Source: Candidatus Woesearchaeota archaeon (GTDB lineage Archaea > Nanobdellota > Nanobdellia > Woesearchaeales > ARS49). Taken from it: a DNA stretch of 36,286 nucleotides. Positions within the stretch are counted from its first letter, which is position 1, and the number at the start of each line of letters is the position of its first letter. The translations under genes and the position numbers were made by a program. Positions 241-26,959 of the stretch are shown piece after piece. Where the stretch lies: contig JAGVYM010000047.1 in NCBI GenBank assembly GCA_018303245.1, positions 1 through 36,286 on the forward strand, written 5' to 3'. Under the pieces are notes generated by a model, which was given only the letters and a program-made list of their open reading frames with translations, was not told where the DNA came from and searched no databases.

Positions 241-243
241 AAA

Positions 244-366: not shown

Positions 367-451
367 TTATTTTTTATTATATTGCTGGCTTAAAGTGTCT
401 TTCTCAAACAAAATCGTAAAATCTTCAGCTTTTTCTGAAGAACTACCAGTA

Positions 452-461
452 ACTTTATTAT
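452..461 (+). promoter_or_regulatory. TATA-box-like element for the downstream M50 protease gene
   Basis: ACTTTATTAT is centred about 27 nt upstream of the ATG at 484. The same spacing recurs at many genes in this window. Confidence 0.4.
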
Positions 462-483
462 GTCCCGTAACTAGTTCTGAAGT

Positions 484-1041: not shown

Positions 1042-1074
1042 TACCTTAAAAAGAAGCGCAAATAACATAGGATT

Positions 1075-1700: not shown

Positions 1701-1751
1701 GTTATGTATGTAAAGGTAAAACCACGCCATTTATCTTCAATATAGAAACAA

Positions 1752-5797: not shown

Positions 5798-5808
5798 ACT
5801 GATGTCCA

Positions 5809-5816
5809 TTTTTTTT
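5809..5816 (+). terminator. T8 run, a likely archaeal terminator after lhr
   Basis: TTTTTTTT lies 12 nt after the stop codon at 5795-5797. Confidence 0.45.
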
Positions 5817-5873
5817 AATCACTTGACAATAATTGCAAAAGTTAAATAATGTGCTCCTTTCACCTCCTAGATT

Positions 5874-6100
5874 GCCGAGGCGGACATTTCGGTTGCCCTG
5901 AAAAGGGTGCGAGTACGACAGCCTCTGTTCGGTGTTCAACCAAACACGTGACGACTGGACTATAGCTCGTCAGCGTGCGTCTACACTGATTAAGCTCGTT
6001 GGTAGCGCGTAGGAGATAACCTGTCATCAATCCACACTCGAAGATGAGGATTCGATAGGGTGTCGGTACAGGCACTCTTACACCGAGTCCAGACCTCGGC
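5874..6100 (-). ncRNA. structured RNA candidate of about 227 nt, possibly a divergent SRP (7S) RNA; strand and identity are tentative
   Basis: The ends pair: GCCGAGG(5874-5880)/CCTCGGC(6094-6100), extended by GGAC/GTCC. Read on the minus strand, the 5' part (GCCGAGGUCUGGACUCGGUGUAAGAGUGCCUGUACCGACACCCUAUCGAAUCC) resembles the SRP Alu domain: a GGUG loop, GUGCCUGUA, and a CCC loop. There are two adjacent perfect hairpins in the middle. A/T-rich TATA-like boxes lie about 25-30 nt outside both ends. No convincing helix-8 (GNAR/AGCA) motif was seen. Confidence 0.4.
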
Positions 6101-6108
6101 TCTTTACC

Positions 6109-6297
6109 ATGCAAAAAAGGAAAAATTTGAGGAAACATTCTCGCAGGCCAAGTAGGAATGGCAAGGGTTCAAAGGTTCGTAAGCTGATTCTTCTTGCGAG
6201 AAGGAACGCGCGAGGGAAAAAGAGAGTGGTGAGTAAGAAGAGTGCGTCGCGTGTCAAGAAATCAGTCAGAAAAAGTGCCGGAAAGAAAAGGCGTTGA
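6109..6297 (+). CDS. very basic (K/R-rich) 62-aa protein, hypothetical
   Basis: ATG ORF, roughly 40 percent Lys/Arg (KKRVVSKKSASRVKKSVRKSAGKKRR). It ends 21 nt before the HIT gene, which has no TATA box of its own, suggesting co-transcription. It could also be non-coding. Confidence 0.35.
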   Translation: MQKRKNLRKHSRRPSRNGKGSKVRKLILLARRNARGKKRVVSKKSASRVKKSVRKSAGKKRR

Positions 6298-6318
6298 TTT
6301 GTTGACAGTTGACCACTT

Positions 6319-6750
6319 ATGAACTGTCCTTTTTGCACCATCGATAAAGGAAAAACAAAAAGTATCCAGGAAAAGGAGCACGTTCTTGTTGTCTTCAGCA
6401 ATCCGCGCTTAATGCCAGGTCATCTTTTGGTGATCCCCAAGCGTCACGTCGAGCGTCCTTCTGAATTAAACGCAGATGAACGTAAAGAATTGTTTGATAC
6501 TGCAATCGAGTTCCAAGAGAAAATTCTCACAAAATTCGCAAAAGGATGTGACATAAGTCAGCATTGCAGACCGTTCTTGCCCGAGAGCTGGACAAAAGTT
6601 AATCACGTGCATTTGCACCTGCGTCCGCGTGAGTTTGAGGATGAGTTGTATCAGAAGTCTCAAAAGGGTGAGAAAGATTTGTGGAAAGACTTACCCCAAG
6701 ATGAATTCAAGCGAGTTCTGCAAACACTTAATCTCACCAAACCTTTATAA
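6319..6750 (+). CDS. HIT (histidine triad) family protein
   Basis: N-terminal CPFC and the histidine triad NHVHLHLRP. Confidence 0.85.
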   Translation: MNCPFCTIDKGKTKSIQEKEHVLVVFSNPRLMPGHLLVIPKRHVERPSELNADERKELFDTAIEFQEKILTKFAKGCDISQHCRPFLPESWTKVNHVHLHLRPREFEDELYQKSQKGEKDLWKDLPQDEFKRVLQTLNLTKPL

Positions 6751-6752
6751 AT
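6744..6752 (+). promoter_or_regulatory. TATA box for proS (leaderless)
   Basis: TTTATAAAT is centred 25 nt upstream of the ATG at 6774 and overlaps the stop codon of the HIT gene. Confidence 0.5.
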
Positions 6753-6773
6753 TCCCTTCTTTCCTCTCGACAT

Positions 6774-8234
6774 ATGCCCAAGAAAGATGACGTTACGCAA
6801 GGAATCACTGTGAAAAAGGCAGATGATTGTTCTGAGTGGTATACGCAAGTCATTCAGAAAGCGGAGTTGGCTGAGTATACTGATGTTTCGGGCTGTATGA
6901 TTTTCCGTCCCCGTGTCTTCGCGATTTGGGAAAAGCTGCAAGCCTTTTTCGACGCAGAAATTAAAAAGCTCGGCGTCAAGAACGCATACTTCCCAATTTT
7001 TATTCCTGAACATCTTTTGATAAAAGAGAAAGAGCACGTTGAGGGTTTTGCTCCTGAAGTCGCGTGGGTGACGCAAGGGGGTAACTCGCCGTTGAACGAG
7101 CGGTTAGCAATTCGTCCAACGAGCGAGACCATCATGTATGATGCGTACGCGAAGTGGATTAGAAGCTATCGTGACTTGCCGCTCAAAATCAATCAATGGG
7201 TGAATGCCGTCCGCTGGGAGTTCAAGCATCCGGTTCCCTTCCTTCGAGGACGAGAATTCCTCTGGCAGGAAGGCCACACTGTGTTTGCGAAGAAAGCGGA
7301 TGCTGAAAAGGAAGTTCTCGACATATTGGAGCTTTACCGAAGAGTGTTCGAAGAGTGTCTTGCCCTTCCGGTCATCAAAGGAAAGAAGAGTGAGAACGAA
7401 AAGTTTGCGGGCGCTGATTATTCTACCTCAGTAGAAACCCTCACGCCAAGCGGCAAGGCGGTTCAGGCGGCGACAAGCCATCACCTAGGCCAGCGGTTCG
7501 CGAAGAGTTTTGGTATTGAATTCCTGGATGAGAACAGTCAGAAGTCAATTCCTTATCAAAACAGTTGGGGCTTCTCGACCCGTTCGATTGGCGCGATGAT
7601 TCTATTCCACGGCGACGACAAAGGGATTGTGATTCCACCAAAAGTCGCTCCGCTTCACGCAGTTGTCATCCCCATTGTGTTTGACAAAGACAAAGAGTTA
7701 GTCCTCAAAGAAGCAAAGAAAATCGCAGACTCACTCAAAAAAGCAGGAGTTTCAGTCGAGCTTGACGACCGTGATTCATACACTGCGGGCTGGAAGTTCA
7801 ATGAGTGGGAACTCAAAGGCGTTTGCCTGCGCATTGAAGTTGGCCCTAAAGATGTTGAGAAAAAGCAGGCTGTTGTGGTGCGCAGGGACACTGGCAAGAA
7901 GGAGTTTGTGAAAATCACAGACCTTGCAAAACACATCGAGTCTGAACTTGAAGCGATGCAAACTGATATGTTTACTAAAGCAAAGAAGTTCTTGACAGAA
8001 AACACAGTCCACGCAAAATCTTGGTCCGAGTTTGAAAAAGCGATCAAGGCCAAAAAGCTTATTGTCATGCTTTGGTGCTGCATAGAGAAGTGTGCACAAG
8101 ATATCAAGGAAAAGACGGAAGGTGCAAAGTGTTTGAACCTGCCTTTTGAAGAAAACAAAACAGCAACAAAAGACAAGTGTGTCCACTGCGGCAAACCCGC
8201 AAGTGCGGTTGCGTTGTTTGCCAAGTCATACTAA
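6774..8234 (+). CDS. proS: prolyl-tRNA synthetase, archaeal/eukaryal type
   Basis: Class II aaRS motifs (RPTSETIMY, FLRGREFLWQEGHT, SWGFSTRSIGAMILFHGDDKG), an anticodon-binding domain, and a C-terminal zinc-type domain ending in ...SY, typical of archaeal ProRS. Confidence 0.95.
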   Translation: MPKKDDVTQGITVKKADDCSEWYTQVIQKAELAEYTDVSGCMIFRPRVFAIWEKLQAFFDAEIKKLGVKNAYFPIFIPEHLLIKEKEHVEGFAPEVAWVTQGGNSPLNERLAIRPTSETIMYDAYAKWIRSYRDLPLKINQWVNAVRWEFKHPVPFLRGREFLWQEGHTVFAKKADAEKEVLDILELYRRVFEECLALPVIKGKKSENEKFAGADYSTSVETLTPSGKAVQAATSHHLGQRFAKSFGIEFLDENSQKSIPYQNSWGFSTRSIGAMILFHGDDKGIVIPPKVAPLHAVVIPIVFDKDKELVLKEAKKIADSLKKAGVSVELDDRDSYTAGWKFNEWELKGVCLRIEVGPKDVEKKQAVVVRRDTGKKEFVKITDLAKHIESELEAMQTDMFTKAKKFLTENTVHAKSWSEFEKAIKAKKLIVMLWCCIEKCAQDIKEKTEGAKCLNLPFEENKTATKDKCVHCGKPASAVALFAKSY

Positions 8235-8285
8235 CCACCTTAACAAAAGAGAGAATTTTTATATTCTGCTGATTTGCTGACCAGT

Positions 8286-8790
8286 ATGAATCAGCGCATG
8301 ATTGTTAAAATTATTTCAGTGTTACTTATTATTGGTGCAGTGGTTACAATAGGATATCCTATTATTTACATTCTACTTTCAGGTACGAGTGACATTGTGA
8401 GCCAACAACGTTTTGGTCCTCCGCAATCCATTTATGAGCCAACGTTTTGGTCCTCCGCAATCCATTTATGAGCGCTTGGCAGCGATTATTTTCGACAATT
8501 TGTTGTTTTTTGGGCTAGGAGTGTTTCAATTCATTGTCGGACTAAAACTTTGGAAATTACGGTCTTGGTCAAGAGTTGTCGCAGGTATTTGGTTCGGAAT
8601 TGCATCTTTGTACGTTCTTGGAATCTCACTGTGGAAGGTATTTCTTTATTTTTTTAGGAACCTTTACAGTTGGGTTAGTTTAGATTGGTGGCTCGTTCTT
8701 GGTTTATTGGTTATTGCCGCAATTCTAGGTATTCTAATTTCTTGCCTTTTGTTGTTCAATAAGAACACGAAACTTCTTTTTATAAAGTGA
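8286..8790 (+). pseudogene. small multi-TM membrane protein gene split by a 34-bp tandem duplication
   Basis: ORFs 8274-8471 and 8413-8790 both encode QRFGPPQSIYE. Removing one 34-bp copy joins them into one ORF of about 160 aa. TATA-like TTTTTATATT (8256-8265) lies 25 nt upstream of the ATG at 8286. Confidence 0.6.
8406..8473 (+). repeat. perfect 34-bp tandem direct duplication (2 copies)
   Basis: CAACGTTTTGGTCCTCCGCAATCCATTTATGAGC occurs at 8406-8439 and again at 8440-8473. Confidence 0.95.
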
Positions 8791-8845
8791 ATTCATAACT
8801 CTTATAAGCCAGATATTCGTTTGTTTTTTTTGTGGGTGATTTCAA

Positions 8846-9223
8846 ATGGAAACAGCGTATGCAGTTGAAACGTCAAAATCAGTGAGTGATGCAGTGGTTG
8901 CAGTTCTTAAGGCTGTTGAGCAGAAAGGTTGGGCGGTGTTTGCCGTGATTGATCTGCAGGAGCGCCTTATAGCTAAGGGATTTGCGCAAAAGCCGGTGAA
9001 GGTCATCGAGATTTGTTCGGCAAAGCACGCGAACGCGATGTTGAATAAGAACCGGCTTGTTTCGTTGTGTATGCCTTGCAGGATTGCAGTGTTTGAGGAT
9101 GGCAAGACGAGGATTGCGACCATGCGCCCTGTAATACTGGCAGGCATGTTTGACGGAATTTCTGTGCAAGATGTCGAGTTGATTGACGCGGACTTGCGTA
9201 CAATAGTGGATGCGGCGGCATAA
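8846..9223 (+). CDS. DUF302 domain protein
   Basis: 125 aa with a DUF302-like pattern (VFAVIDLQ..., EICSAKHANAML, LCMPCRIAVFEDG). GGGTGAT SD-like motif at 8834-8840. TATA-like CTTATAAG at 8801-8808. Confidence 0.75.
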   Translation: METAYAVETSKSVSDAVVAVLKAVEQKGWAVFAVIDLQERLIAKGFAQKPVKVIEICSAKHANAMLNKNRLVSLCMPCRIAVFEDGKTRIATMRPVILAGMFDGISVQDVELIDADLRTIVDAAA

Positions 9224-9225
9224 CT

Positions 9226-9234
9226 CTTATAAAT
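9226..9234 (+). promoter_or_regulatory. TATA box for the transketolase gene (leaderless)
   Basis: CTTATAAAT is centred 25 nt upstream of the ATG at 9255. Confidence 0.5.
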
Positions 9235-9254
9235 CCCCCTTCCATTCTCGTTTT

Positions 9255-11042
9255 ATGCAAAAAGAGGTCGTTTTACAACAGATTGCAAACCGTTTGCGCC
9301 ATCATGTTCTCCATATGACCACTCGAGCAGGCTCTGGTCACCCTACAACTTGCCTAAGCTCGGCAGAAATTATGGCTTGTTTGTTTTTCTCCGATATGAA
9401 ATACAATGCCAAGCACCCGCAAGACCTCGCCAACGATGAATTCATCTTGAGCAAGGGCCACGCTGCTCCGATTTTATGGGCAGCCTACGCAGAGGCAGGA
9501 GTTATTCCATTCGCTGAACTTTCCAAGTTCCGCACGTTTGAATCTCAGCTTGAAGGTCACCCTACGCCAAGGATGCCGTGGGTTAAAGTCGCGACTGGAA
9601 GCCTGGGTCAAGGTCTTTCCATAGGTGTGGGGATGGCGCTCGCCCAGCGATTGCACAAATCAAATGCGAAAACATTTGTGCTCGTGGGTGATGGTGAATG
9701 TGCTGAAGGAAGTGTCTGGGAGGCAGCAAGTCTCGCAGCAAAACTGCACGTTTCAAATCTTGTCGCAATAGTCGACTGCAATAGACTTGGGCAATCTGGT
9801 GAATCATTGCACGGCAAACACGCGGATGTCTGGAAGAAGAAATTCGAAAGCTTTGGCTGGTCGGCAAAAGTTATTGATGGTCACAATATCAAAGAGATTC
9901 TGCGCGCTTTTGCAGAGAAAAAGAAATGTCCAGTTGTAATCATTGCCAAGACAGTCAAAGGCAAAGGAGTTTCTTTCCTGGAAGACAAGGAGGGCTGGCA
10001 CGGCAAGGCGCTTTCTCCTGGTGAACTTATCGACGCGCTTCGTGAACTTGGACCGCTTCCAGGAATAGACGCAAAAAAGTTTGTCCATCATAGAAAACCA
10101 ATGGCGCAAAAGTTGTCCTGGCTTGGAGTTCCAGCAGTCAGTTACAAGCATGGTGACCAAGTAGCGACACGGGAAGGGTATGGCACGATGATTGCAAAGC
10201 TTGGTAAAAACCCAAGGATTGTCGCGCTTGATGGTGATGTGAAGAATTCGACGTTTGCAGAAAAATTTAAGTCTCTTTATCCGGCGCGTTTTGTGGATTC
10301 GTTCATCGCAGAACAAAACATGGTTGGAATGGCGATGGGTTTTGCCGCGAAAGGGTTTGTTCCGTTCGCAAGCACCTTTGCAGCGTTTCTCACAAGAGCT
10401 CACGACCAATTAAGGATGGCTGCGATTTCGCGATTGAATCTTAAGTGCGTCGGCTCGCACGCGGGAGTTTCGATTGGGGAGGATGGTCCGTCCCAGATGG
10501 GCTTGGAAGACCTTGCGTTGTTCCGCTCGCTTCCCGAAAGCACAGTCTTGTATCCTTGCGACGCGGTTTCAGCGGAGAAATGTACTGCATTGCTTGCTCA
10601 ATCAACAGGAATCGGTTACTTGCGTACCACACGGCCTAAGACTTCAGTGATTTACAAATCCGCAGACTTGTTTGTCATCGGCGGAAGCAAACTTATTGTA
10701 AAAGGAAAAGACTTGCTCATCATCGCCGCAGGAATCACAGTCCACGAATCGCTCAAAGCTGCAAAGCTGCTTAAAAAGAAAGGAATCTCCGCAAGTGTGC
10801 TTGACGCGTATTCAATAAAGCCGCTAGACGCAAAAACCATCAAAGTGCAGGCCAAAGGCAAGCAAGTTATTGTGGTTGAAGATCATTACGCGCAAGGAGG
10901 TCTTGGCGAAGCTATCGCAAGTTCAGGAATTTCTATTACGCATTTGTGCATCAAAGAGATTCCTCGTTCGGGAAAAGCAGATGTTCTTCTTGCAAAGTAT
11001 GGGATTGATGCGAAAGCGATTGTAGCTGCAGTAAAGAAGTAA
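9255..11042 (+). CDS. tkt: transketolase (fused N- and C-terminal halves)
   Basis: SGHPTTCLS, GSLGQGLSIGVGMA, and GDGECAEGSVWEA (TPP binding), then a pyrimidine-binding/C-terminal half (FIAEQNMVGMA, SHAGVSIGEDGPSQ). The start is moved to 9255 based on the TATA spacing; the ORF-track start at 9210 overlaps the DUF302 gene. Confidence 0.9.
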   Translation: MQKEVVLQQIANRLRHHVLHMTTRAGSGHPTTCLSSAEIMACLFFSDMKYNAKHPQDLANDEFILSKGHAAPILWAAYAEAGVIPFAELSKFRTFESQLEGHPTPRMPWVKVATGSLGQGLSIGVGMALAQRLHKSNAKTFVLVGDGECAEGSVWEAASLAAKLHVSNLVAIVDCNRLGQSGESLHGKHADVWKKKFESFGWSAKVIDGHNIKEILRAFAEKKKCPVVIIAKTVKGKGVSFLEDKEGWHGKALSPGELIDALRELGPLPGIDAKKFVHHRKPMAQKLSWLGVPAVSYKHGDQVATREGYGTMIAKLGKNPRIVALDGDVKNSTFAEKFKSLYPARFVDSFIAEQNMVGMAMGFAAKGFVPFASTFAAFLTRAHDQLRMAAISRLNLKCVGSHAGVSIGEDGPSQMGLEDLALFRSLPESTVLYPCDAVSAEKCTALLAQSTGIGYLRTTRPKTSVIYKSADLFVIGGSKLIVKGKDLLIIAAGITVHESLKAAKLLKKKGISASVLDAYSIKPLDAKTIKVQAKGKQVIVVEDHYAQGGLGEAIASSGISITHLCIKEIPRSGKADVLLAKYGIDAKAIVAAVKK

Positions 11043-14345: not shown

Positions 14346-14367
14346 TGTTGCTTCAGAAAAATAAAAT

Positions 14368-14481
14368 GAGCCCGGCCAGGTTCGAACTGGCGACTTGCTC
14401 GACTTTGAAAGGCCGAAGGCGTTTCAAAGAAATGCCTTGGCTTTCGTCAACGAGCCGTCATAACCGCTAGACCACGGGCTC
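14368..14481 (-). tRNA. tRNA-Val (anticodon GAC) with an anticodon-loop intron of about 42 nt
   Basis: Minus strand: GAGCCCG-UG-GUCU-AGCGGUUAU-GAC-G-GCUCG-UUGACGA[42-nt intron, about 14402-14443]CGAGC-AAGUC-GCCAG-UUCGAAC-CUGGC-CGGGCUC. All four stems pair. The intron forms its own long hairpin. CCA is not encoded. Confidence 0.85.
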
Positions 14482-14506
14482 AATGTATATTGTTTATTCA
14501 CTTTTT

Positions 14507-14548
14507 GAGCCTGTGGTTCCGCCACGAGAGTGGCTAGACCACGGGCTC
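14507..14548. repeat. 42-nt hairpin that contains a 16-nt copy of the tRNA-Val 5' end
   Basis: GAGCCTGTGGT-TCC-GCCAC-GAGA-GTGGC-TAG-ACCACGGGCTC. GCTAGACCACGGGCTC (14533-14548) is identical to 14466-14481, which is tRNA-Val nt 1-16 on the minus strand. Confidence 0.7.
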
Positions 14549-15303: not shown

Positions 15304-15329
15304 AGCCTCTGACGGGAAGCAACACCCTC
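15304..15329 (-). repeat. displaced copy of the tRNA-Thr 3' end (att-like direct repeat, left island border)
   Basis: AGCCTCTGACGGGAA (15304-15318) is identical to 23346-23360, the acceptor 3' strand, T-stem and discriminator of tRNA-Thr. An imperfect extension (CACCC) corresponds to the T arm. Confidence 0.6.
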
Positions 15330-15405
15330 TTCGTAAGCACAAACTCGCTTACAGGTTGATGCGAGAATCTGATAAGGTGTACTCCAGCAAGTATTTATTT
15401 CAAAT

Positions 15406-15451
15406 GTTGGGTTTAATACCCCGCAGCTTGCTGCGGTTTGCAGTATCCAAC
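15406..15451. repeat. structured repeat copy 1 (stem-loop element)
   Basis: GTTGG...TAATACCCCGCAGCTTGCTGCGG...CCAAC. The inner hairpin CCGCAG-CTTG-CTGCGG is enclosed by the 5-bp outer stem GTTGG/CCAAC. Confidence 0.5.
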
Positions 15452-15460
15452 TTTGAAATT

Positions 15461-15546
15461 AGAAAATACCGGTCGACCGCAGTAGAGAAAATGAGCGTAA
15501 TACCCCGTCAGCTTGCTGCGGGATAGCTCATTTTCAGGTATTTTCT
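15461..15546. repeat. structured repeat copy 2 inside nested inverted repeats
   Basis: Outer 10-bp stem AGAAAATACC (15461-15470)/GGTATTTTCT (15537-15546). Palindrome CGGTCGACCG (15470-15479). Second 10-bp stem GAAAATGAGC (15487-15496)/GCTCATTTTC (15526-15535), which encloses TAATACCCCGTCAGCTTGCTGCGG. Confidence 0.55.
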
Positions 15547-15564
15547 TTATTTCTTTTGAATTGC

Positions 15565-15663
15565 TTAAGCAAATTGTGCAATGACCCAGATGATAAAATA
15601 CAAAATCCCTACTATGAAGACAATCCAGGCTAAGACGCCAATCCATCCGAAGTTGCCCTTCAT
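15565..15663 (-). CDS. possible 32-aa single-TM peptide
   Basis: ATG ORF MKGNFGWIGVLAWIVFIVGILYFIIWVIAQFA. It is not in the ORF track because it is under 60 aa. Hydrophobic core typical of small membrane proteins. No other support. Confidence 0.3.
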   Translation of the reverse strand: MKGNFGWIGVLAWIVFIVGILYFIIWVIAQFA

Positions 15664-15788
15664 TTCAGTTGCACTTAAAGAGTTAGCAACGTCAATTAGT
15701 GAAGCACGTAATTAACTATCACTGGACACGCTTCAACGAAAGTCTTATTAATGAACAAACCTTCCATTAAAAAGGGGTGTAAAAGAGG

Positions 15789-16703
15789 ATGCCTGCGCTT
15801 GCACAAGAACATCTGAAGAAAGAATCTGCTCAGACTGCAGAGCTTATAGAGATTAAGGAATTCAAGGCAAAAAATGGAAGTATCTTCTTAGGTGACTGTC
15901 TTAAGACAATGCAACAACTGCCAGAAAACAGTATCACTTTGGCATTCACATCACCACCTTATCTTAACGCAATAAACTATGAAGAGCATGTTGAAAAACT
16001 TCAAGGAAAGAAAGAACGATGGGAGCGTAAAGAAGTATCATATTCTGAGTATCGCGACTTTTTAGTCTACCGCTTCAAAGAACTCCTTCGTATCACCAAG
16101 CCAGGAGGATATAACGTAGTTAACATTGCGCCAGTCGGCTGGAACGGTACGCGCGTCGCTTTACCATTCCATTTTGTTAGCTGGATGGAGTCCATAGGCT
16201 GGAAGTTCTGCGAAGATATTATTTGGGAAAAACCAGTTGCAAAAGACAGAAGATCCGGAGTCTTACTACAGCACCCCTATCCTGGTTATTATTATCCGAG
16301 TCTTGTTTCTGAATACGTCTTTGTCTTCCAGAAACCCGCAGAAAAAGAAAAAACAGAAAACATTTACTGGCACAGGTCAAAAGAAGAAAAGGAAAGAAAT
16401 CGCATTGACTTGAAAGACTACCAAGGCGAGATGAGTAAAAACGTTTGGAAAATACGTCAAGTAGCACCACAAGAAACCATTCATCCTTGCGCGTTTCCTG
16501 TTGAACTTGCTTCAAGAATAATCAAATTTTACTCATACAAAGATGATGTAGTAGTAGACATCTTTGCCGGAAGTGGACAAACATTGTTAGCCGCTGAAAT
16601 GCAAGGTAGAAAGTTCATAGGAATGGACACGCAAAAAGAATATGTTGATTATGCTCTTGAAAAGATCAAGAAGGTGGAAGGGCAAAAGAAGCTCACTGAT
16701 TAA
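15789..16703 (+). CDS. DNA methyltransferase, beta-class (N4-cytosine or N6-adenine), type II R-M
   Basis: Motif IV FTSPPY near the N-terminus and motif I VVDIFAGSGQT near the C-terminus (beta permutation). SPPY favours m4C. Confidence 0.9.
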   Translation: MPALAQEHLKKESAQTAELIEIKEFKAKNGSIFLGDCLKTMQQLPENSITLAFTSPPYLNAINYEEHVEKLQGKKERWERKEVSYSEYRDFLVYRFKELLRITKPGGYNVVNIAPVGWNGTRVALPFHFVSWMESIGWKFCEDIIWEKPVAKDRRSGVLLQHPYPGYYYPSLVSEYVFVFQKPAEKEKTENIYWHRSKEEKERNRIDLKDYQGEMSKNVWKIRQVAPQETIHPCAFPVELASRIIKFYSYKDDVVVDIFAGSGQTLLAAEMQGRKFIGMDTQKEYVDYALEKIKKVEGQKKLTD

Positions 16704-16704
16704 T

Positions 16705-17829
16705 ATGAATGTTCTTGCAAGAATTGAAAACGTAGTATATGAATCTTTACTTTGTCGCGATCTCCCAATTGTTTCTTTGAAAGAGTTTGAAAATGGCAAA
16801 GCATTTGTCAATTCCTCTTTTGTAATTGATATTAAAGAAGGAAAAATTGCTGTAAGTCACTGGGTTTCTGCAAAAAGAACACGAAGTTACCCTTTCGCTC
16901 GTGTTTATGACACCATGAATTACAAAACCAGAGTCACAATCATACCTCTTGTAAAAGATGAAGGCAAAGATGGTGATCGAGATTATTTACAATGGGATAC
17001 TGTTTCACTCATGAGTCTTCTTGGTGTACACGTAATCATTGCGTACTACAAAAAAGCCAAAAAATCAGAAGAATACAAAAATAAGATAACAGACCAGGAA
17101 TTTGATTACAAATACCTCAAAGAGAAACTCCAAGAATTACTGAAATACAAATCTGGCGCGTTACACTGGAATCTGAAACAATTATCAGAAATCAACAAAA
17201 TCTCAAAGAAATGCGAAAATGCGTATTACAAACAAATAAGCAAAAAATGTGGTGTAGAGCTTCATGGCATCGATAGTTTCAAAGAACGCATTAGGCAAAT
17301 CACGGAAGACGTGGAAAAATTCAAGGAGTTTTCAAGAGAACTTGCAAAATCGGCACAGCACAGAGAATCGCTTACAACCCAACCAAAAGAACGAGTCGTA
17401 AATGAAAAAGGCACAATAACTATAACTAATTACTTGGGCGGGGCATACTATTTCACTGTTGATGAACTTGTTATTGACAAGAAAAAACTATTTTTGATCG
17501 AAAAGAAGCATTCTCGCGATTCAATTCCGAGCCTTGCGGATGTTCAGGATGGACTAATTAAGATGATTCTGTACTCTAATCTTGCACAAGCAACAGTTGA
17601 TGGTATTGAATATCAAATCAAGCCAGTACTTGGACTTACTGCAGATCATTTCACAGGATTGTGCGGAAGCCTAACCGAATTGCAAGCTTGTGGAAAGCAG
17701 TTAAGCAAAAGTGATTTTGAGATGCTTTCTACATTATTCAAAGAGGCGGAGAAAAATGGATTTAAAGTATTTATTATGGATTCTTCCAAGAAAACACTCC
17801 AAGACAAGTTTTTAGATAAAATATCTTAA
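16705..17829 (+). CDS. putative cognate type II restriction endonuclease
   Basis: The ATG lies 1 nt after the MTase stop. Candidate PD-(D/E)xK core: VDELVIDKKKLFLIEKKHS. I recognise no other family. Confidence 0.5.
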   Translation: MNVLARIENVVYESLLCRDLPIVSLKEFENGKAFVNSSFVIDIKEGKIAVSHWVSAKRTRSYPFARVYDTMNYKTRVTIIPLVKDEGKDGDRDYLQWDTVSLMSLLGVHVIIAYYKKAKKSEEYKNKITDQEFDYKYLKEKLQELLKYKSGALHWNLKQLSEINKISKKCENAYYKQISKKCGVELHGIDSFKERIRQITEDVEKFKEFSRELAKSAQHRESLTTQPKERVVNEKGTITITNYLGGAYYFTVDELVIDKKKLFLIEKKHSRDSIPSLADVQDGLIKMILYSNLAQATVDGIEYQIKPVLGLTADHFTGLCGSLTELQACGKQLSKSDFEMLSTLFKEAEKNGFKVFIMDSSKKTLQDKFLDKIS

Positions 17830-17868
17830 AACAATAAGTATTTTAAGACTCGTGATTCAATAAGCGTT

Positions 17869-18108
17869 ATGTTAACACTTTCAAAATCCAAGTACGTTTT
17901 GGGCCTTCAATGTCCTAAACTTTTGTGGTGTTTGTTTAATGCTCCGGAACTTATTCCACCAATAGATGAAAGCACGCAAGCTATTTTTGATCAAGGTCGT
18001 GAAGTTGGCAATTTTGCTGAAACTCGAAGACACCGCATCATCCCAATCAGTTCAACTTTTGTGAAGATGACATCAAAAGCATCTTTGGATTGTACGAACC
18101 AGAATTAA
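17869..18108 (+). pseudogene. N-terminal fragment of a DUF2779-type (Cas4/RecB-like) nuclease
   Basis: LSKSKYVLGLQCPKLLWCLFNAPELIPPIDESTQAIFDQGREVGNFAE matches the characteristic DUF2779 N-terminus. Similarity ends after about 50 aa and the ORF stops at 79 aa. Confidence 0.5.
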
Positions 18109-18341
18109 GTATCCTGCGTGTCTGGAATCCTAATTCTCAAAGAAATCCTATTTACCCTGATTATTTGGACTCGTTGAAAGACCATGAGAGTTGGGTTGTT
18201 CTTGCTTCAATACTCTCTCAACCAACTTGCACTCCCAAAATTATACACCACGTTATCGAACGAAAAGGGTTTAGCAAAGGTTACGAATACCTCTTAGAAA
18301 TAATCACGAGAAACCCAAATACTGAATTGAGAACACTTGAC

Positions 18342-18581
18342 TTAATCATGAACGACACTCTTGTTGAGCCACGCGTAATATTGTTTGAGTATGACTTTGA
18401 CGTCGTGTTTTGTCCAGAAAGAGTATTCGCCATTTTCGTACGTGTTGACGAGCCGTTTCAAGTCAAGCTCAGTTGCCTTTTCATACGGCTTGCCGATTTT
18501 ATGAATGAACGTAAAGAAATCTTCACAGGCAAATGAGAAAATGAAAAAGTCAGCACCAAAATTCAGCCTGCTCTGGTTCAT
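18342..18581 (-). pseudogene. N-terminal fragment of a tyrosine recombinase/integrase (SAM-like domain only)
   Basis: KATELDLKRLVNTYENGEYSFWTKHDVKVILKQYYAWLNK resembles the N-terminal core-binding domain of archaeal integrases. No catalytic domain is found in any frame downstream. Confidence 0.45.
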
Positions 18582-18660
18582 ATTCTGGACAATACTCTTC
18601 GGAATAGGCGGACTTGTTTACATCGTATGGGTGTACTTCAAACAGCAAGAGGCAAAATGA
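18541..18660 (+). CDS. 39-aa single-TM protein, translationally coupled to the lipoprotein gene
   Basis: MKKSAPKFSLLWFIFWTILFGIGGLVYIVWVYFKQQEAK. Its TGA overlaps the next ATG (ATGA at 18657-18660). Confidence 0.4.
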   Translation: MKKSAPKFSLLWFIFWTILFGIGGLVYIVWVYFKQQEAK

Positions 18661-19580
18661 AAAAATTCTTTGCTTTGATATTCTTATGCTTCTTTCTTAT
18701 TTCCTGTTTACAGCCAACACCAGTCCCGCTTGAATCCACTGAGCCAAGTATGCAAGAAGACGCGGAAACGCCAACATCTGAACAAACATTAGAACCAGAA
18801 ACTGGCAAGGCGAAAATGACTCCTGAAGAACTTCGTGATTTGTTGGAGTCAGGTTATTTCAAAGATGAATCCAACAAGCCAAAACCAACAGAAGTAATAC
18901 AATCAGATGAGACTGATTTTGTTGAAGTACCAAAGTCAGAGCCCACTACAGGAGCTTCGTTATTGAGCAAGTGCATTCAAATCTGCATAAAAAACGGTGA
19001 AGTAGATGGAGCAGACAAAAAAACAATGGAATTCTTGCCTTCTGCTTGTAGTGCTGCTTGTGGAAACATTGCGATGTACGGTGGTGAAGAACGGCTTTTG
19101 ACAGTAATTAAACATTACGAAGAGTCCATCAAGTTTCACCAGAATTTTAACGCAGGGCTCTACGATAAAGATATAGAACAATGCAAGACGTGGAAAACAG
19201 AAGCGATAACTGCAAAGAACGAGCACTGGCACTTCCAAAGCAATTATGCTGAAGCTCATCAAACAAAAATCGATGACAACACGCTAAGGGTGTGCGAACA
19301 AAGCGTTAAAGACTGGGTTTTAGAACAAAAACAAGAAAAGCCTCTTGGAATAGAGTTTAAAGAAGAGGCAGATTCTATAAAGGATAAAGAGCGTAAAGTC
19401 ACTGATGAATGTTATCCCACTATGTATGAATATAAACGATTGGTATTCACGAAAAGAAATGAGTTAGACCAGCACAATCTTGAGAAGGAGTCTATTAGCG
19501 ATTGTTTGCTAAGAGTCATTCATCCTGAATTTTACGACTACATCGAAGGCTTGAAGAAAGGCATCCCTAACTGGCAATAA
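18657..19580 (+). CDS. secreted lipoprotein-like protein, function unknown
   Basis: Signal peptide with a lipobox-like LISC (MKKFFALIFLCFFLISC), an acidic low-complexity linker, and a Cys-containing C-terminal domain. Confidence 0.65.
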   Translation: MKKFFALIFLCFFLISCLQPTPVPLESTEPSMQEDAETPTSEQTLEPETGKAKMTPEELRDLLESGYFKDESNKPKPTEVIQSDETDFVEVPKSEPTTGASLLSKCIQICIKNGEVDGADKKTMEFLPSACSAACGNIAMYGGEERLLTVIKHYEESIKFHQNFNAGLYDKDIEQCKTWKTEAITAKNEHWHFQSNYAEAHQTKIDDNTLRVCEQSVKDWVLEQKQEKPLGIEFKEEADSIKDKERKVTDECYPTMYEYKRLVFTKRNELDQHNLEKESISDCLLRVIHPEFYDYIEGLKKGIPNWQ

Positions 19581-19766
19581 AGACCGATACCAAAAGCCTG
19601 CCCAAACTGCAACAGCAGAATATGGGACAAACCAAAATAAAAAACACTGGCACTGCTACATTTTCTTCGGACGCCGGGACCGAGTAGTGCATACTCCTGT
19701 GATTTCTAATATGTGTAGAAGTAGCGAAGTATAAAAGAATTACGAAAGAATGACAATGCATCAAGT

Positions 19767-20600
19767 TCACTTTACAATTCCCAGTCTTAGAAGTCGGGCA
19801 CGAATGGCACTTGGTTGTCTTCCCATTACTTGTGCTATTTCTTTTATTGGTTTATTTTCAAGGAACAACTCTTTTAATCTGTTCTCTAATTCGTCATCCC
19901 AAGGCTCATGAGCGCTAGGATGAGCCGTGTGTATTTTCTGAAGGCGTGTCAGGGTTTTCGGAGCATCTAAGTCTATGTTTCCGTTCTTTTTAATCTGATT
20001 AACCTGCACCCCATTAGGCACAGTAAGCCAACGAGTAATCAACGCTTCATATTCGGTGAGCCGACAACCTTGTCCCTCACTTGAAGGATTTTGAATCCCA
20101 AAATCTTGAGCAAGCCAATCAGTGAAAGTCAAAACATGAAGTTTTTCAGACGCATTATAAATATAAAACCAGACATTAATTCGAGAGTTTTTTAATTTCT
20201 CCTTATCAGGCACTGATATGGACTTAACTTTATCAATTATCTCGAACTTGGAATTTATCACAACCATTTGGGAATGTTTATACTTGTTTAAAAGTTTGAA
20301 ATCTTTTTCATTAAGGTCGCCATTCCACCTATATCTGACTTCTACCACTCTTCGCTTACCACTTTTATGAATAATAACAAAATCAGGCAAAGTTTTAAGG
20401 AAATCAGCATTATCACCCAAGTCTGTAAAACTGAAGTCATCTTTAAATGCTTTTGTGAAATATTCCATTTGGGTTGTTGGAATAGTCATATATTCCTTTC
20501 CTAAATGGCATACAAGAAAGCCCATATCCCTGAAAGCATGTTCAATTAAAACTTCTGCAATCTTCCCTTTCACCATACGTTCAGTAACATCAACAGTCAT
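19767..20600 (-). CDS. PD-(D/E)xK-like nuclease-fold protein with a C-terminal HTH domain
   Basis: N-terminus: KGKIAEVLIEHAFRDMGF ... LPDFVIIHKSGKRRVVEVRYR, i.e. an E / PD / ExK-like layout with R in place of K. C-terminus: WDDELENRLKELFLENKPIKEIAQVMGRQPSAIRARLLRLGI, a Myb/sigma-r4-like HTH. The start is set at the ATG at 20600, 26 nt downstream of a TATA box at 20622-20629 (minus strand). Confidence 0.65.
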   Translation of the reverse strand: MTVDVTERMVKGKIAEVLIEHAFRDMGFLVCHLGKEYMTIPTTQMEYFTKAFKDDFSFTDLGDNADFLKTLPDFVIIHKSGKRRVVEVRYRWNGDLNEKDFKLLNKYKHSQMVVINSKFEIIDKVKSISVPDKEKLKNSRINVWFYIYNASEKLHVLTFTDWLAQDFGIQNPSSEGQGCRLTEYEALITRWLTVPNGVQVNQIKKNGNIDLDAPKTLTRLQKIHTAHPSAHEPWDDELENRLKELFLENKPIKEIAQVMGRQPSAIRARLLRLGIVK

Positions 20601-20647
20601 AGTCCTCAATAAACCAAGCTCATATAAAAGTCTTGTTAAGAAAAGAA

Positions 20648-20748
20648 GTGTTTAGCTGCAAGAGGTGCCGAGCGACACATTTGTCGTCAATGACACCATT
20701 AAATTCATTATTGAATTGTGAAAATTTGTCTAGACGTGAGCTAAACAC
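20648..20748. promoter_or_regulatory. nested palindromic (cloverleaf-like) element of about 100 nt between divergent promoters
   Basis: Outer 10-bp stem GTGTTTAGCT (20648-20657)/AGCTAAACAC (20739-20748). Inner hairpins CGACA-CATT-TGTCG (20673-20686) and AATTCA-TTAT-TGAATT (20702-20717). Palindrome GTCTAGAC (20728-20735). Confidence 0.45.
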
Positions 20749-20803
20749 GTACATAAAGAACAAAACTTATTAAATAACATGTGAATATCTTATCATAATA
20801 CAG

Positions 20804-20811
20804 TTTATAAA
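20804..20811 (+). promoter_or_regulatory. TATA box for the RecQ-family helicase gene
   Basis: TTTATAAA lies about 85 nt upstream of the ATG at 20897. A GAGGA SD-like motif lies about 9 nt before the ATG. Confidence 0.4.
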
Positions 20812-20896
20812 GGAATTTATCAAGAGAAAGAAAAAAGAACCTATTGGCCAATCTCAAAAAAGAGGAGTTGAGATATTAACTATTTGAGGAAATTTA

Positions 20897-23023
20897 ATGG
20901 AAGACAAAACTGAATTGAACGATTTTGAAAGAAGAATAATCGAGCAAGTAGAACATGCAAATGCAAACGACATTGATTTTTCAGATTGTACTCCGCTGAA
21001 CGTTGCTCGGACGGTATTCGGATTTAATGGTTTCAAGGAAAATGGACAAGAAAAAATAATCGAGTTCGTTCTACATAAAAAAGGAGACGTTTTAGGAATT
21101 ATACCAACAGGCGGCGGGAAATCTGCTTGTTTTCAAATACCTGCATTAATTCAGAAAAACATGACTGTGGTAATTAGTCCATTAATCGCTTTGATGAAAG
21201 ATCAAGTGGAAAGTTTAGTTAGGAAGGGAATTCATTCCTCCTTTTTTATTAATTCTTCAATAAATGAAGAGGTTAAAGAAAAGATAATTTCTTTAATTAT
21301 GCAAAATAAAGTAAAATTACTATATATTGCTCCGGAATCTTTACAATCAGAAAGAATTCAAAATATTTTATCAAAAGTTAAAATAGATTTAGTGGTTGTT
21401 GATGAAGCACACTGCATATCGACTTGGGGACATAACTTTAGACCTGATTATCTAAAATTAGCAGAGATAATAGAAACACTCGGTTCTCCGCCAGTATTAG
21501 CATTGACTGCGACAGCCACAAAAAAAGTCATTATTGATATTAATATACAATTAAAGAGGGAGTTTAAGACGTTTAAGGCAAGTTTTGATAGGCCTTTATT
21601 GTACATGGTTGTTCAGGATGTTCCCGATAATATTGATAAAGAAATCTTTTTCCTAAACTTAATTAAAAAACTAACTGGACCAACAATAGTATTTGCCCGA
21701 ACAAGAGAATTAACTGAAAACCTTTCAATTCTATTAAACCAGAATAACATAAGAAGTATTTTCTATCATGCGGGACTAAATTCTGAAGAAAGGCAAAAAC
21801 GACAAAACTCATTCATGGATGGCGAATGCAATATTATCATTGCAACAATTGCGTTTGGCATGGGTATTGATAAGAAAGACATAAGAAACATCATCCATTA
21901 CAATATGCCTCAATCTGTTGAAGGATATTATCAAGAAATAGGGAGAGCGGGGAGAGATGGAGATAAGTCAAATTGTATTTTACTTTTTACCGAAGGAGAT
22001 ATTCATAGAATGAAAGCGTTAATTTCTACAGATTGGCCTAACAAAGAGAAAATCGAGGACTTAATTAACCATTTAAAAAACAAAACAACTAATTTAATAT
22101 TTGCTAATGCGAAAGGATTAGAATATGAAACGGACATAAAGGAAATTCCCGTACGTTTGATTTTACACAGATTAGAAGAAGCAGAAGCAATAAAGAAATA
22201 TTCCAGTGTGCTTCATAATTTTAAAGTAAAATTTAATAAAAAGCATCTTGAAATTATTGCTTTATCAGATAAAAGGTATGTTGATGATATTAAGAAAATA
22301 TTATCTTCTGAATATTTTAAAAGCGTAAGATCAATTATTAATCTTGAGATGTTAGTTGATGAAACAAAAATGAATTACTTTAAAGTTCTAGAAATTTTTA
22401 GGTATTTGGCTGGTCAGAATTACATAGATATAACAAAAGAACAACATAAAGATTTAATTTTTATTAAAAAAGAACTAAATTCATTTGATATTGCGCCTCT
22501 TGTAACTCTTTTTCAAGATATATTAAATAAAAACTACCAAAAAATTGATGATCTTGTCATATGTCTAACATCTCAAAATTGTATTCGTAGAAGTGTTTTA
22601 GAATATTTTGATGAACCAAACTTAAAAACGAAATGTGACATGTGTTCTAATTGTGTTGCATTAGAAATGTTAAATACTATACCTATGAAGATAAATGAGA
22701 ATTATGCCACGGATGAAGAGATAACTGCATTATCAAGTCTTAAAATAGATATAAATAGTGACGAATTTCATATTATCTTACTAAAATCAGTGGGAATTGA
22801 TAAGTGCATCCCTAAAAAAGATTTCGCTAAAGTACTAAATGGTACTTTACACAGATTATCTGCAAAGTGGAAATTTGAATTATGCTCTTATAATATATTA
22901 AAAGAAGAAGAATCGAAGATTGGAGATACTGTAAACAAATTAGTATCTGATGAATTAATGGAAATTACTCCTGATGGTGAATTAAGAATTACAAAAAAGG
23001 GAATAACTACCCTTTTAAAATGA
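20897..23023 (+). CDS. recQ: RecQ-family ATP-dependent DNA helicase with a large insertion and an extended C-terminus
   Basis: PTGGGKSACFQIPAL, VISPLIALMKDQV, VVDEAHCISTWGHNFRPDY, LTATAT, and YQEIGRAGRDG. The RecQ zinc motif (NCIRRSVLEYFDE...CDMCSNC) appears only about 210 aa after motif VI. The gene is very AT-rich. Confidence 0.9.
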   Translation: MEDKTELNDFERRIIEQVEHANANDIDFSDCTPLNVARTVFGFNGFKENGQEKIIEFVLHKKGDVLGIIPTGGGKSACFQIPALIQKNMTVVISPLIALMKDQVESLVRKGIHSSFFINSSINEEVKEKIISLIMQNKVKLLYIAPESLQSERIQNILSKVKIDLVVVDEAHCISTWGHNFRPDYLKLAEIIETLGSPPVLALTATATKKVIIDINIQLKREFKTFKASFDRPLLYMVVQDVPDNIDKEIFFLNLIKKLTGPTIVFARTRELTENLSILLNQNNIRSIFYHAGLNSEERQKRQNSFMDGECNIIIATIAFGMGIDKKDIRNIIHYNMPQSVEGYYQEIGRAGRDGDKSNCILLFTEGDIHRMKALISTDWPNKEKIEDLINHLKNKTTNLIFANAKGLEYETDIKEIPVRLILHRLEEAEAIKKYSSVLHNFKVKFNKKHLEIIALSDKRYVDDIKKILSSEYFKSVRSIINLEMLVDETKMNYFKVLEIFRYLAGQNYIDITKEQHKDLIFIKKELNSFDIAPLVTLFQDILNKNYQKIDDLVICLTSQNCIRRSVLEYFDEPNLKTKCDMCSNCVALEMLNTIPMKINENYATDEEITALSSLKIDINSDEFHIILLKSVGIDKCIPKKDFAKVLNGTLHRLSAKWKFELCSYNILKEEESKIGDTVNKLVSDELMEITPDGELRITKKGITTLLK

Positions 23024-23346
23024 AAGTCATTATTAATAATTCACAAACTCGTAGCATTTATAAATAAAAAATCCGAATTCTTAACAGCCGACACTTAACA
23101 TCCACAGGTTGAACAATACGTTAAGAAAAGAGGTATTTGCTGAACACTACATTTCGTGAACATTCGCTATTAAGAAAACCACACTATGTTTTTAACAAAG
23201 CTCTTGCGGTCACAAGTGGACGACACAAGCCGACAAGCTCCCTAAAGTATGTTCAAACCTCAAATGTAAAAGCCCATACTGGGACTCCAAGAGAAAAGAA
23301 AGGAAAATCTAAAAGAATCCCTAAGTTTGTTACGTTTGGTTATACA

Positions 23347-23441
23347 GCCTCTGACGGGAATTGCACCCGCGACCTCCACCTTTTTGTTGACGTTTTGTTC
23401 TTGATACCAAGGTGGCGCAATGGCTACTATGCTACAGAGGC
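23347..23441 (-). tRNA. tRNA-Thr (anticodon GGU) with a 23-nt intron; atypical D and T loops
   Basis: Minus strand: GCCUCUG-UA-GCAU-AGUAGCCA-UUGC-G-CCACC-UUGGUA[intron 23382-23404]A-GGUGG-AGGUC-GCGGG-UGCAAUU-CCCGU-CAGAGGC, discriminator U. TATA-like TTTTTAAAGG (23468-23477) lies about 30 nt upstream. The T loop has G at position 55 and the D loop lacks GG. Confidence 0.65.
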
Positions 23442-23540
23442 AATGGTGTTGTGTGGTTTGGTCGTGGTTTTTAAAGGTTTGTTTGGGGAGCGTGAATGAA
23501 AGCCGAAAAATATAAATATGTGTATACATATGTAGACTCC

Positions 23541-23777
23541 ATGGGAACAAAAACAATTGCGATCATGGATGATGTGTATGCTCTTTTGAAAGCGCTTAAA
23601 GCGCCTCATGAAAGCTTTTCAGATGCATTAAGAAGGCTTGCGAAAACAAAAGGAGATATTGTGGCTCTTGCGGGAAGCTGGGGAGATATTTCAGATAAAG
23701 ACGCGGAAAAGATAAAAAGCGCACTTATCCGTATGCGCAAAGGAACTCGCATTGACGAGTTGCGGAAACGTTTATGA
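23541..23777 (+). CDS. vapB: VapB-type antitoxin (archaeal putative-antitoxin family)
   Basis: MGTKTIAIMDDVYALLKALKAPHESFSDALRRL is the typical N-terminus of this antitoxin family. ATGA overlap with vapC. Confidence 0.8.
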   Translation: MGTKTIAIMDDVYALLKALKAPHESFSDALRRLAKTKGDIVALAGSWGDISDKDAEKIKSALIRMRKGTRIDELRKRL

Positions 23778-24157
23778 TCCTTGACACAACAATATTGATT
23801 GATTTCTTACGCGGAGAGGAACGCGCAATTCGTTTTGTTGCAGATCATTCCCCTCTATGGACAACTGAAGTGAACGTCTTTGAATTGTTTGTAGGCGCTT
23901 ACCTTGGAGGAGTTGTGCAGAAGAAAAAAGATAACGCTGGTGCATTGATTGAGCGATTGATTGTTCTGCCTCTTGATCGCAAAGCATCAATAAAGGCTGC
24001 CGAACTTGCAAGTGAGCTGATTAAAAAAGGTCTTACAGTTGAGACTGCAGATAATTTGATTGCGGGAATTGCATTGACAAATGGAATAACAGAAATAGTG
24101 ACTGCAAACAAATCACATTTTGAGCGATTCGATGAGTTGAAAGTCATTTCTTATTGA
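23774..24157 (+). CDS. vapC: VapC PIN-domain ribonuclease toxin
   Basis: MILDTTILIDFLRG (first acidic residue), FEL, ADNLIAGIAL, and TANKSHF: the PIN domain layout. Confidence 0.9.
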   Translation: MILDTTILIDFLRGEERAIRFVADHSPLWTTEVNVFELFVGAYLGGVVQKKKDNAGALIERLIVLPLDRKASIKAAELASELIKKGLTVETADNLIAGIALTNGITEIVTANKSHFERFDELKVISY

Positions 24158-26364: not shown

Positions 26365-26959
26365 TCAATTTTTGCTTGCGCTCGCAGTTGAATAATTAGT
26401 GGTAACGCTGCCATGCCTCTCTTTCGCGATTTCTGCAAGTGCTTTGTAGTCTGCGTTGCCCGGCTCGCATTTGAGCAAATCGCCATAGTACTGCATGAGT
26501 GTTCCTTCCACGTCATATTCTGCTGCCAGATGGTCATCAAAGTTTCTGCCTTTTTGGCTCAAGTGTACGTTCTCATGGTCGAACACATATCGCCGAGCAA
26601 CGTTTTGTGAGACTCCGATAATTGGTGAGTTGTTTTCCTTCACTGTTAAAGTATGTTCTGGCATAATCTGCAAAACTGCTGTCGCGTCCAAGCCCGATCC
26701 GTGCCTTATGATAAGGGACGGGTTCGTCGACTACAGGAATGTTTTTCTTGAGCTGTCCAATGAGGTCGTGGCACTCGCACGTACAGGCAGAGCTTCCTGC
26801 AAGTTCTTTTCTGTTTTGGAGTATTTGTTGTTTGACTGTAGAACCACTCGAATACATTGAATGGGTCCGTTCAGTAGGAGCATGTGCGGGGCCACAGAGC
26901 ATACAATTTGCTCCAGATATTCCTGTTCTCGAATTCCCTGCATAGGATGTTAAAGTCAT
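26365..26959 (-). pseudogene. Cys-rich/HEXXH-motif protein gene, apparently frameshifted
   Basis: Two same-strand ORFs (26573-26959 and 26365-26691) overlap by 119 nt in different frames. The upstream part has CMLCG and CTCEC. The downstream part has FDHENVHLS (HEXXH). The family is not recognised. Confidence 0.35.

Follow-up and report, generated by a model that had tools for sequence, protein, structure and literature searches.

How did an AT-rich island of about 8 kb come to lie between two copies of the 3' end of a threonine transfer RNA (tRNA-Thr) gene, and how much of its mobility is left? The island lies in contig JAGVYM010000047.1 of a Candidatus Woesearchaeota archaeon (assembly GCA_018303245.1), and we refer to the whole analysed stretch of this contig, 36,286 nucleotides, as the window. 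An initial annotation, made from the sequence alone, had read the two copies as the footprint of site-specific integration into the tRNA gene. We are highly confident that positions 15319-23345 are the remnant of an integrative element that targeted tRNA-Thr with a tyrosine integrase in an uncultured DPANN archaeon of the Woesearchaeota type, and that this remnant is both decayed and composite. Feature coordinates are collected in Table 1, and contigs used for comparison are denoted by L numbers.

The borders of the island are defined to the base by a direct repeat. The 15-mer AGCCTCTGACGGGAA occurs on the plus strand as two exact copies, the distal and proximal cores of Table 1, and nowhere else in the whole window when up to two mismatches are allowed (0.04 expected). 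Allowing three mismatches added no further copy in the window, and none of the eight matches with four mismatches fell within the island, so there is no internal degenerate attachment (att) copy that would delimit tandem elements. The repeat had been identified as the tRNA-Thr 3' end, and this proved correct at all 15 nucleotides, in a gene that is a real tRNA by both its Rfam match and its splicing. Similarity had also been described as continuing imperfectly into the T arm, and it does: with a 5-nt gap, the sequence next to the distal core follows the tRNA as far as about 15337, and an element from another archaeon (L062, described below) has conserved this mimic. The spacer between this att arm and the methyltransferase gene is decaying.

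The target is an intron-bearing tRNA-Thr(GGU) gene. Default ARAGORN reported no tRNAs in the window, and the RF00005 alignment contained a large insertion after the anticodon. Removing 23 nt at position 37/38 gave a 73-nt tRNA that ARAGORN called as Thr(GGU), and the spliced sequence differs from an intron-less tRNA-Thr(GGU) on contig L022 only at a single base of the D loop and by compensated changes in the anticodon stem. The intron mode of ARAGORN assigned the gene to Phe(AAA), which we rejected as an artefact of intron placement because the canonical 37/38 splice yields Thr(GGU).

The same site was found without the island in the same species. Contigs with identical proteins came from the Rifle aquifer and related groundwater metagenomes, and the long conspecific contigs were all occupied. 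Exact-protein look-ups with a small flank returned two contigs with an empty site. In L032 (sample SAMN03842430), positions 2-478 correspond to window 23822-23346 and positions 464-1312 to window 15318-14470, the overlap being the 15-mer, and L033 (ERZ27254754) has the same junction. Both have the gene order VapB, tRNA-Thr, a single 15-mer and a short-chain dehydrogenase/reductase (SDR) gene, and both read ...gttacgaaAGCCTCTGACGGGAAttgcacccgcg..., the predicted attB. A direct search for the exact attB junction among Joint Genome Institute (JGI) metagenome contigs returned none. Over about 1 kb, the flanking sequences of the empty allele and the occupied allele agree at 99.9-100% identity, and the tRNA-Thr sequence is the same in both, which means that integration left the tRNA intact. 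Additionally, Logan contig L008, from a third sample, stops exactly at 15318 and L020 starts exactly at 23346, as expected of an assembly graph that branches at a second junction. Since ERZ27254754 contains attB (L033), attL (L050) and L020, occupied and empty states coexist in one sample. Cells with and without the island coexist in the aquifer population.

More distant genomes provided one further island-free locus. The initial annotation had proposed looking in relatives for an empty site. We found one with base-level precision in conspecific contigs and, without the island, also in a sister species (L021; ligase 88% identical in amino acids). The order in the sister species is ligase, tRNA-Thr, one open reading frame (ORF) of 146 amino acids (aa) and SDR, with neither the island nor VapB/VapC. 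In a ligase-based scan the nearest GTDB representative was a metagenome-assembled genome (MAG) labelled 'Nanoarchaeota archaeon', with a ligase 50% identical and unusable synteny, and the tRNA 3'-half pattern was present in no GTDB genome. We also observed a contig (L039, Logan SRR3989338_784888) in which window-type VapBC and tRNA (99.8%) are joined to the 146-aa ORF and SDR of the sister-species type (98.9%). This is possibly a true third configuration, or possibly a k=31 chimera over a 42-nt tRNA stretch shared by both species.

The tyrosine integrase fragment that had been noticed in the middle of the island is genuine. Its open frame spans 79 codons (18342-18581, minus strand) and is transcribed away from the tRNA, in the same orientation as in intact relatives. 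For this ORF, Pfam, PHROGs, PADLOC and a word-indexed homology search returned nothing, and NCBIfam returned only XerA (E 0.09). When 1.84 billion representatives were searched with index-free phmmer, 76 relatives were recovered, and ORF residues 27-75 aligned with positions 60-110 in proteins about 400 aa long. The PF00589 catalytic domain was present in all nine full-length relatives tested, at about 135-300. When 24 integrases were compared with the whole 36-kb window by tblastn, only the stump matched, with no catalytic remnant of the PF00589 type and no second integrase. The earlier view that the island is no longer mobile therefore holds for autonomous mobility, which was lost with the catalytic domain, but recent gain or loss may still have occurred, possibly in trans. 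The island itself is unable to move on its own.

An intact homologous element occurs at tRNA-Thr in another archaeon. Contig L062 (JGI 3300037479 Ga0394879_0088024) carries a 4.8-kb element in the order tRNA-Thr (CGU, 23-nt intron; 528-623), 404-aa integrase, restriction endonuclease, methyltransferase and tRNA-end repeat, together with three small ORFs. As in the island, the restriction-modification (R-M) pair is convergent with the integrase, and its proteins are 81% (endonuclease) and 86.5% (methyltransferase) identical in amino acids to those of the window. Positions 5325-5402 match window 15374-15295 at 79% identity, a region that includes the distal att arm and its 5-nt-gap T-arm mimic. 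The two elements thus have the tRNA-Thr target, integrase lineage, R-M arrangement, distal arm and mimic in common. They differ in that the L062 element is 4.8 kb long with an intact integrase, sits at the CGU isoacceptor, ends in a 27-nt repeat (5381-5407; two mismatches, 93% identical), and has neither the block of RecQ, helix-turn-helix (HTH) and lipoprotein genes nor the DUF2779 stump. The window order, read from the tRNA, is 4.75 kb with the RecQ, HTH and lipoprotein genes, then the integrase stump, DUF2779 stump, endonuclease, methyltransferase and att site. The island had been suspected to be composite or rearranged, and the comparison bears this out: the integrase is beside the tRNA in the intact element, and 4.75 kb of mosaic DNA lies between them in the window. 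We also note that L062 has a second integrase, truncated at 143 aa, directly after its distal att copy (5483-5914). This truncated gene is the closest DNA match to the window stump (86% over 50 nt) and points to elements accumulating in tandem, and to integrase decay, at tRNA-Thr there too.

The integrase lineage is linked to tRNA-Thr in a further organism. The closest full-length relative of the window integrase, on contig L057, starts 88 bp after a tRNA-Thr(GGU) gene. Within region 93-9473 of this contig, the tRNA-Thr(GGU) gene and the integrase of the same lineage are followed by genes for a TrbC-like pilin, a VirB4/TraC-like ATPase and also a resolvase. The region is a candidate integrative conjugative element that occupies the same tRNA. 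The L057 integrase gene lies between two copies of a 37-nt repeat (186-222 and 1468-1504). The integrase-proximal arm of L057 and L062 (TCGGAACACC...) is absent beside the window tRNA.

Base composition changed across the island. GC content was 0.358 in the 8,027 bp between the cores, compared with 0.456 in the left flank and 0.414 in the right flank, and the 8-kb stretch of minimum GC in the whole window starts at 15151. The claim of an AT-rich island was therefore supported by computation, but the island differs less from the right flank than had been implied. Sliding-window GC and tetranucleotide analyses, proposed earlier as a check, both detected the deviation, with tetranucleotide distance from the flanks peaking at 20-24 kb. 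The GC shift is stepped, at 0.389 from the R-M pair to the lipoprotein gene and 0.321 in the HTH and RecQ part. The RecQ-family gene is the compositional extreme (GC 0.299; GC at third codon positions, GC3, 0.226). A second low-GC stretch near the left end of the window (1001-3000, GC 0.37-0.38, with an ORF at 1752-2879 of GC3 0.34) may also be accessory.

We propose the following history. The element would have entered by site-specific recombination catalysed by a tyrosine recombinase, between the tRNA-Thr(GGU) gene of the chromosome, at its 3' end, and an att site on the element that mimics the tRNA-Thr 3' half over about 30 nt. Strand exchange in the common 15 bp would have rebuilt an intact tRNA at one junction and left, at the other, 40 bp upstream of the SDR gene, the displaced 15-bp copy and the degenerate T-arm mimic. 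The comparison with L062 shows that the element was originally compact and consisted of an integrase together with a type II restriction enzyme and a methyltransferase. In the window, the integrase has since lost everything beyond its N-terminal domain, with the stump of a DUF2779 gene at the break, and the 4.75-kb mosaic block of lipoprotein, HTH protein and RecQ-family helicase genes has come to separate the integrase stump from the tRNA; the order of these events is inferred. The empty alleles may be ancestral or may be products of excision. The island persists as a strain-variable block, and its functional core is probably the R-M pair, with a putative role in defence and/or addiction.

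Several observations weigh against this history. The recombinase mechanism is read from relatives, the catalytic domain being absent from the window copy, and no internal att copy bounds the 4.75-kb block in the scan at up to four mismatches. The circular attP junction, which would mark current excision, was found neither in viral contigs nor in any fetched contig, including those from methyltransferase and RecQ look-ups. Finally, flanks that are 99.9-100% identical fit uneasily with long decay, unless recombination homogenised them or the island was already decayed when acquired.

The island might still be mobilised in trans, a possibility that we consider unlikely. The integrase of a related resident element would excise and reintegrate the island, as in a cis-mobilisable element, and the empty sites would be fresh excision products. 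The presence of both alleles in one sample with nearly identical flanks is consistent with this, as are the two perfect 15-bp cores, the conservation of the element-side arm with L062, and the existence of intact integrases of the same lineage in similar environments. Set against these points are the missing attP junction, the lack of a second integrase in the window, and the absence of the integrase-proximal arm (TCGGAACACC...) beside the window tRNA, so that one functional attR arm may be missing. In a broader form, to which we give tentative credence short of an even chance, the window island and L062 would represent an undescribed DPANN family of minimal self-integrating R-M units (about 5 kb) that use a shared tRNA-Thr 3' half, carry almost only R-M cargo and pile up in tandem, with the window copy still gained and lost through an integrase acting in trans.

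It is very unlikely that the locus arose with no site-specific recombination at all, the repeat being fortuitous or a local duplication and the empty alleles resulting from slippage or microhomology-mediated deletion between its copies. A bare exact direct repeat of at least 15 nt is not rare in a window of this size (three observed, compared with a mean of 1.1 in Markov simulations), and an 88-nt presence/absence polymorphism bounded by a 21-nt repeat at tRNA-Val indicates that short-repeat deletions may occur here. However, a same-orientation recurrence of 15 nt exactly at a tRNA 3' terminus is expected only about 2e-5 times. The att arm is moreover homologous to that of the independent L062 element, which has its intact integrase at tRNA-Thr, the island contains an integrase stump of the L062 lineage and deviates in composition, and the sister species lacks the island.

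We find it more improbable still that the empty site was created by faulty assembly, through a chimeric join over the 15-bp repeat or one between species that occur together. A chimera of this sort is conceivable for L039 (Logan, k=31), as the 42 identical tRNA nucleotides of the window species and the sister species exceed k. However, 15 bp should be shorter than any k used by the assemblers concerned, given the usual ranges, and the same junction is present in two independent datasets (a k141-named contig and an ANAN16 scaffold), with both flanks 99.9-100% of the window type. Contigs of other assemblies that terminate exactly at 15318 and 23346 are also what a true branch in the graph predicts. 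An element of the Sulfolobus spindle-shaped virus (SSV) type, with att inside the integrase gene and the halves split by integration at both island ends, can practically be dismissed: a 147-codon open frame does cross the junction of the reconstructed circular form, but it has no family match even at E up to 10, the 24 integrases found nothing at either island end by tblastn, the true remnant is internal, and the L062 integrase is whole though integrated.

Table 1. Features of the island and its tRNA-Thr target, in window coordinates.
Feature	Position	Strand	Description	Evidence
Distal 15-bp core	15304-15318		Displaced tRNA-Thr 3'-end copy, island border on SDR side	Exact copy; L008, L032, L033 junctions
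Element-borne att arm	15319-15374		Includes degenerate T-arm mimic 15319-15337	79% identity to L062 distal arm
Non-coding spacer, att arm to methyltransferase gene	15402-15545		144-bp deletion polymorphism	Absent from L002/L011, L034
Type II DNA methyltransferase	15789-16703	+	N6/N4 class	PF01555 7.5e-41; PADLOC MTase_II 7e-57
Type II restriction endonuclease	16705-17829	+	ORF open from 16642	PADLOC REase_II PDLC03572 6e-81
DUF2779-type N-terminal fragment	17869-18018	+	50 codons	tblastn against annotated DUF2779 proteins, 56% identity, E 2e-10
Tyrosine integrase stump	18327-18599	-	N-terminal SAM-like domain, residues about 27-116 of about 400	tblastn E down to 1e-14
Predicted lipoprotein	18627-19580	+	Orphan	Lipobox LISC after second Met (read from translation)
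280-aa protein	19767-20609	-	Orphan, C-terminal HTH	Sigma70_r4_2 0.0019; phrog_323 1.9e-7
RecQ-family helicase	20897-23023	+		TIGR00614 374 bits (cut-off 219.8)
Proximal 15-bp core	23346-23360		tRNA-Thr positions 59-73, last is discriminator base	Exact match, Rfam; L020 starts 23346
tRNA-Thr(GGU)	23346-23441	-	Integration target, intact, 23-nt intron 23382-23404	Rfam RF00005 50.3 bits

Genes carried by the island fall into the R-M unit, gene fragments and the mosaic block. The adjacent methyltransferase and endonuclease genes form a predicted type II R-M system, and the assignment made in the initial annotation was upheld for both proteins by PADLOC (Table 1). The fragment previously assigned to DUF2779 was likewise confirmed, for its N-terminal 50 residues only; Pfam found no domain in it because the model covers the missing part. 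No family match was found for the lipoprotein in Pfam, PHROGs, PADLOC or NCBIfam.

The orphan 280-aa protein had been described as a nuclease with an HTH domain. The HTH was recovered in two profile collections (Table 1), but the nuclease domain was not confirmed; a match to DUF790 (0.013) was below the cut-off. In an AlphaFold2 model, predicted local distance difference test scores reached 76-93 in the C-terminal part starting at residue 241, compared with about 61 at 231-240, and the model was unusable outside the HTH. Its sole relative has the HTH alone in common with it, and a sequence search of the PDB gave only a weak match to the HTH. Searched against viral contigs, this protein and the RecQ-family helicase returned nothing relevant.

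The gene described as an atypical recQ does belong to the RecQ family, at the level of the recQ_fam subfamily only, since it scored 435 bits against the RecQ equivalog TIGR01389 (cut-off 640). Profile searches found no RQC or HRDC match, and its Zn-binding motif is displaced to residues 544-586. PADLOC matches to DpdF and PsyrT cover the generic helicase core only, and we rejected a Dpd or PsyrTA defence system because PADLOC found none of the partners (DpdA-K, PsyrA) in the island. Relatives with 77-79% amino acid identity occur in unrelated contexts, one in a defence cluster of type III R-M, PD-(D/E)XK and Fic genes and another by HNH and radical-SAM genes, and similarity stops at the ORF ends. 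Their neighbourhoods contained no tRNA, integrase or HTH partner. The contexts of these relatives, without a link to tRNA or integrase, offer nothing in favour of the RecQ block being a second element of the same family; the helicase gene is accessory and solitary, moving from one context to another. Between this gene and the tRNA, in a spacer of 320 bp, we observed a zinc-ribbon-like open segment (23196-23309, plus strand; QSSCGHKW...CSNLKCKSPYW), which may be another gene relic. The segment weakly resembles the Zn-ribbon region at the C terminus of one integrase relative, a match that is not significant (E 1.6).

Outside the island, accessory DNA and small rearrangements were observed at several positions. 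A VapB/VapC pair (23496-24157, plus strand; GC3 0.31-0.34) lies between the 5' side of tRNA-Thr and the ligase gene. In the sister species L021 the pair is absent and the ligase stop codon is 60 bp from the tRNA. This absence and the low GC3 indicate accessory DNA on both sides of tRNA-Thr. The SDR gene also has intron-bearing tRNA genes on both sides, as a tRNA-Val(GAC) gene with a 42-nt intron is located at 14366-14482 (minus strand). This gene was missed by default ARAGORN and by Rfam (E up to 1) and found by ARAGORN in intron mode. A second copy of its first 16 nt lies 67 bp upstream (14533-14548), within a tRNA-like fragment. At its 3' end, some contigs carry an 88-nt insert (window about 14349-14386; L001 about 10917-10966) bounded by a 21-nt duplication, CCTGGCCGGGCTCATTTTATT. 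The 3' end is present as a single copy in the window, L004, L007 and L008, and the insert is found in L001, L002 and L013-L015. The insert may be what another integration left behind, and the polymorphism accounts for several assemblies breaking near tRNA-Val.

Elsewhere in the window, 154 bp are missing at 26617 compared with all other conspecific contigs. This length is not a multiple of 3 and converts a 249-aa ORF into two (26365-26691 and 26573-26959), which reflects a pseudogene specific to this strain or else an error of assembly. An Lhr-type helicase, called as a single protein of 1035 aa on other contigs, is divided in the window between two overlapping ORFs of 615 and 393 aa (2842-4689 and 4616-5797, plus strand), which may reflect a frameshift. 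A perfect 34-nt tandem duplication in two copies (8406-8473) was found upstream of the DUF302 and transketolase genes.

The locus offers an unusually clean, base-resolved example of an integrated element in a DPANN archaeon, a group whose mobile elements are poorly charted. Together, the occupied site, empty site, decayed copy and intact relative provide defined attB and attP sequences. To our knowledge, no Woesearchaeota-type member of the DPANN group can be genetically manipulated, and the 404-aa protein of L062 is a candidate integrase that could serve as a site-specific integration tool for these organisms. R-M content varies among co-occurring strains of one groundwater population, which bears on virus dynamics and on host-symbiont dynamics. 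Additionally, the two intron-containing tRNAs of the window are missed or mis-assigned by default finders, so that islands of this kind will tend to escape notice in the annotation of archaeal MAGs.

Integration into tRNA 3' ends is textbook biology, and the mechanism proposed here is already known, as are mobile R-M units. A non-exhaustive full-text literature search found no description of a tRNA-Thr-targeting element family in DPANN archaea. Islands formed by tyrosine integrases at tRNA genes include the P4-like islands of bacteria and archaeal integrated elements of the non-splitting kind. As in these, a tRNA 3'-end repeat brackets the insert, the tRNA is regenerated, composition deviates, the cargo is accessory or defensive, relatives have the empty site, and integrase decay is followed by fixation. 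Unlike them, the window island has a Woesearchaeota-type DPANN host, an intron-bearing target tRNA, and an integrase reduced to its N-terminal domain and located 4.75 kb from the tRNA.

Cis-mobilisable elements, known from streptococci, are att-flanked islands without a recombination module. The window island resembles them in keeping both att cores without a functional integrase, so that mobilisation in trans is conceivable, and differs in that no helper element or excised circle was found in the window or among viral and fetched contigs. SSV-type archaeal integrases split their own gene on integration. The island shares with SSV-type elements an archaeal host and a target in the 3' half of a tRNA, but its att site lies outside the integrase gene. 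R-M systems are themselves known as mobile units (PMC4176335, PMC2875022). The units described in those papers have in common with the window island a type II pair as main cargo, short direct repeats and presence/absence polymorphism. As characterized there, those units are related to insertion sequences or are transposon-like, whereas the vehicle in the window is an archaeal tyrosine-integrase element that targets a tRNA.

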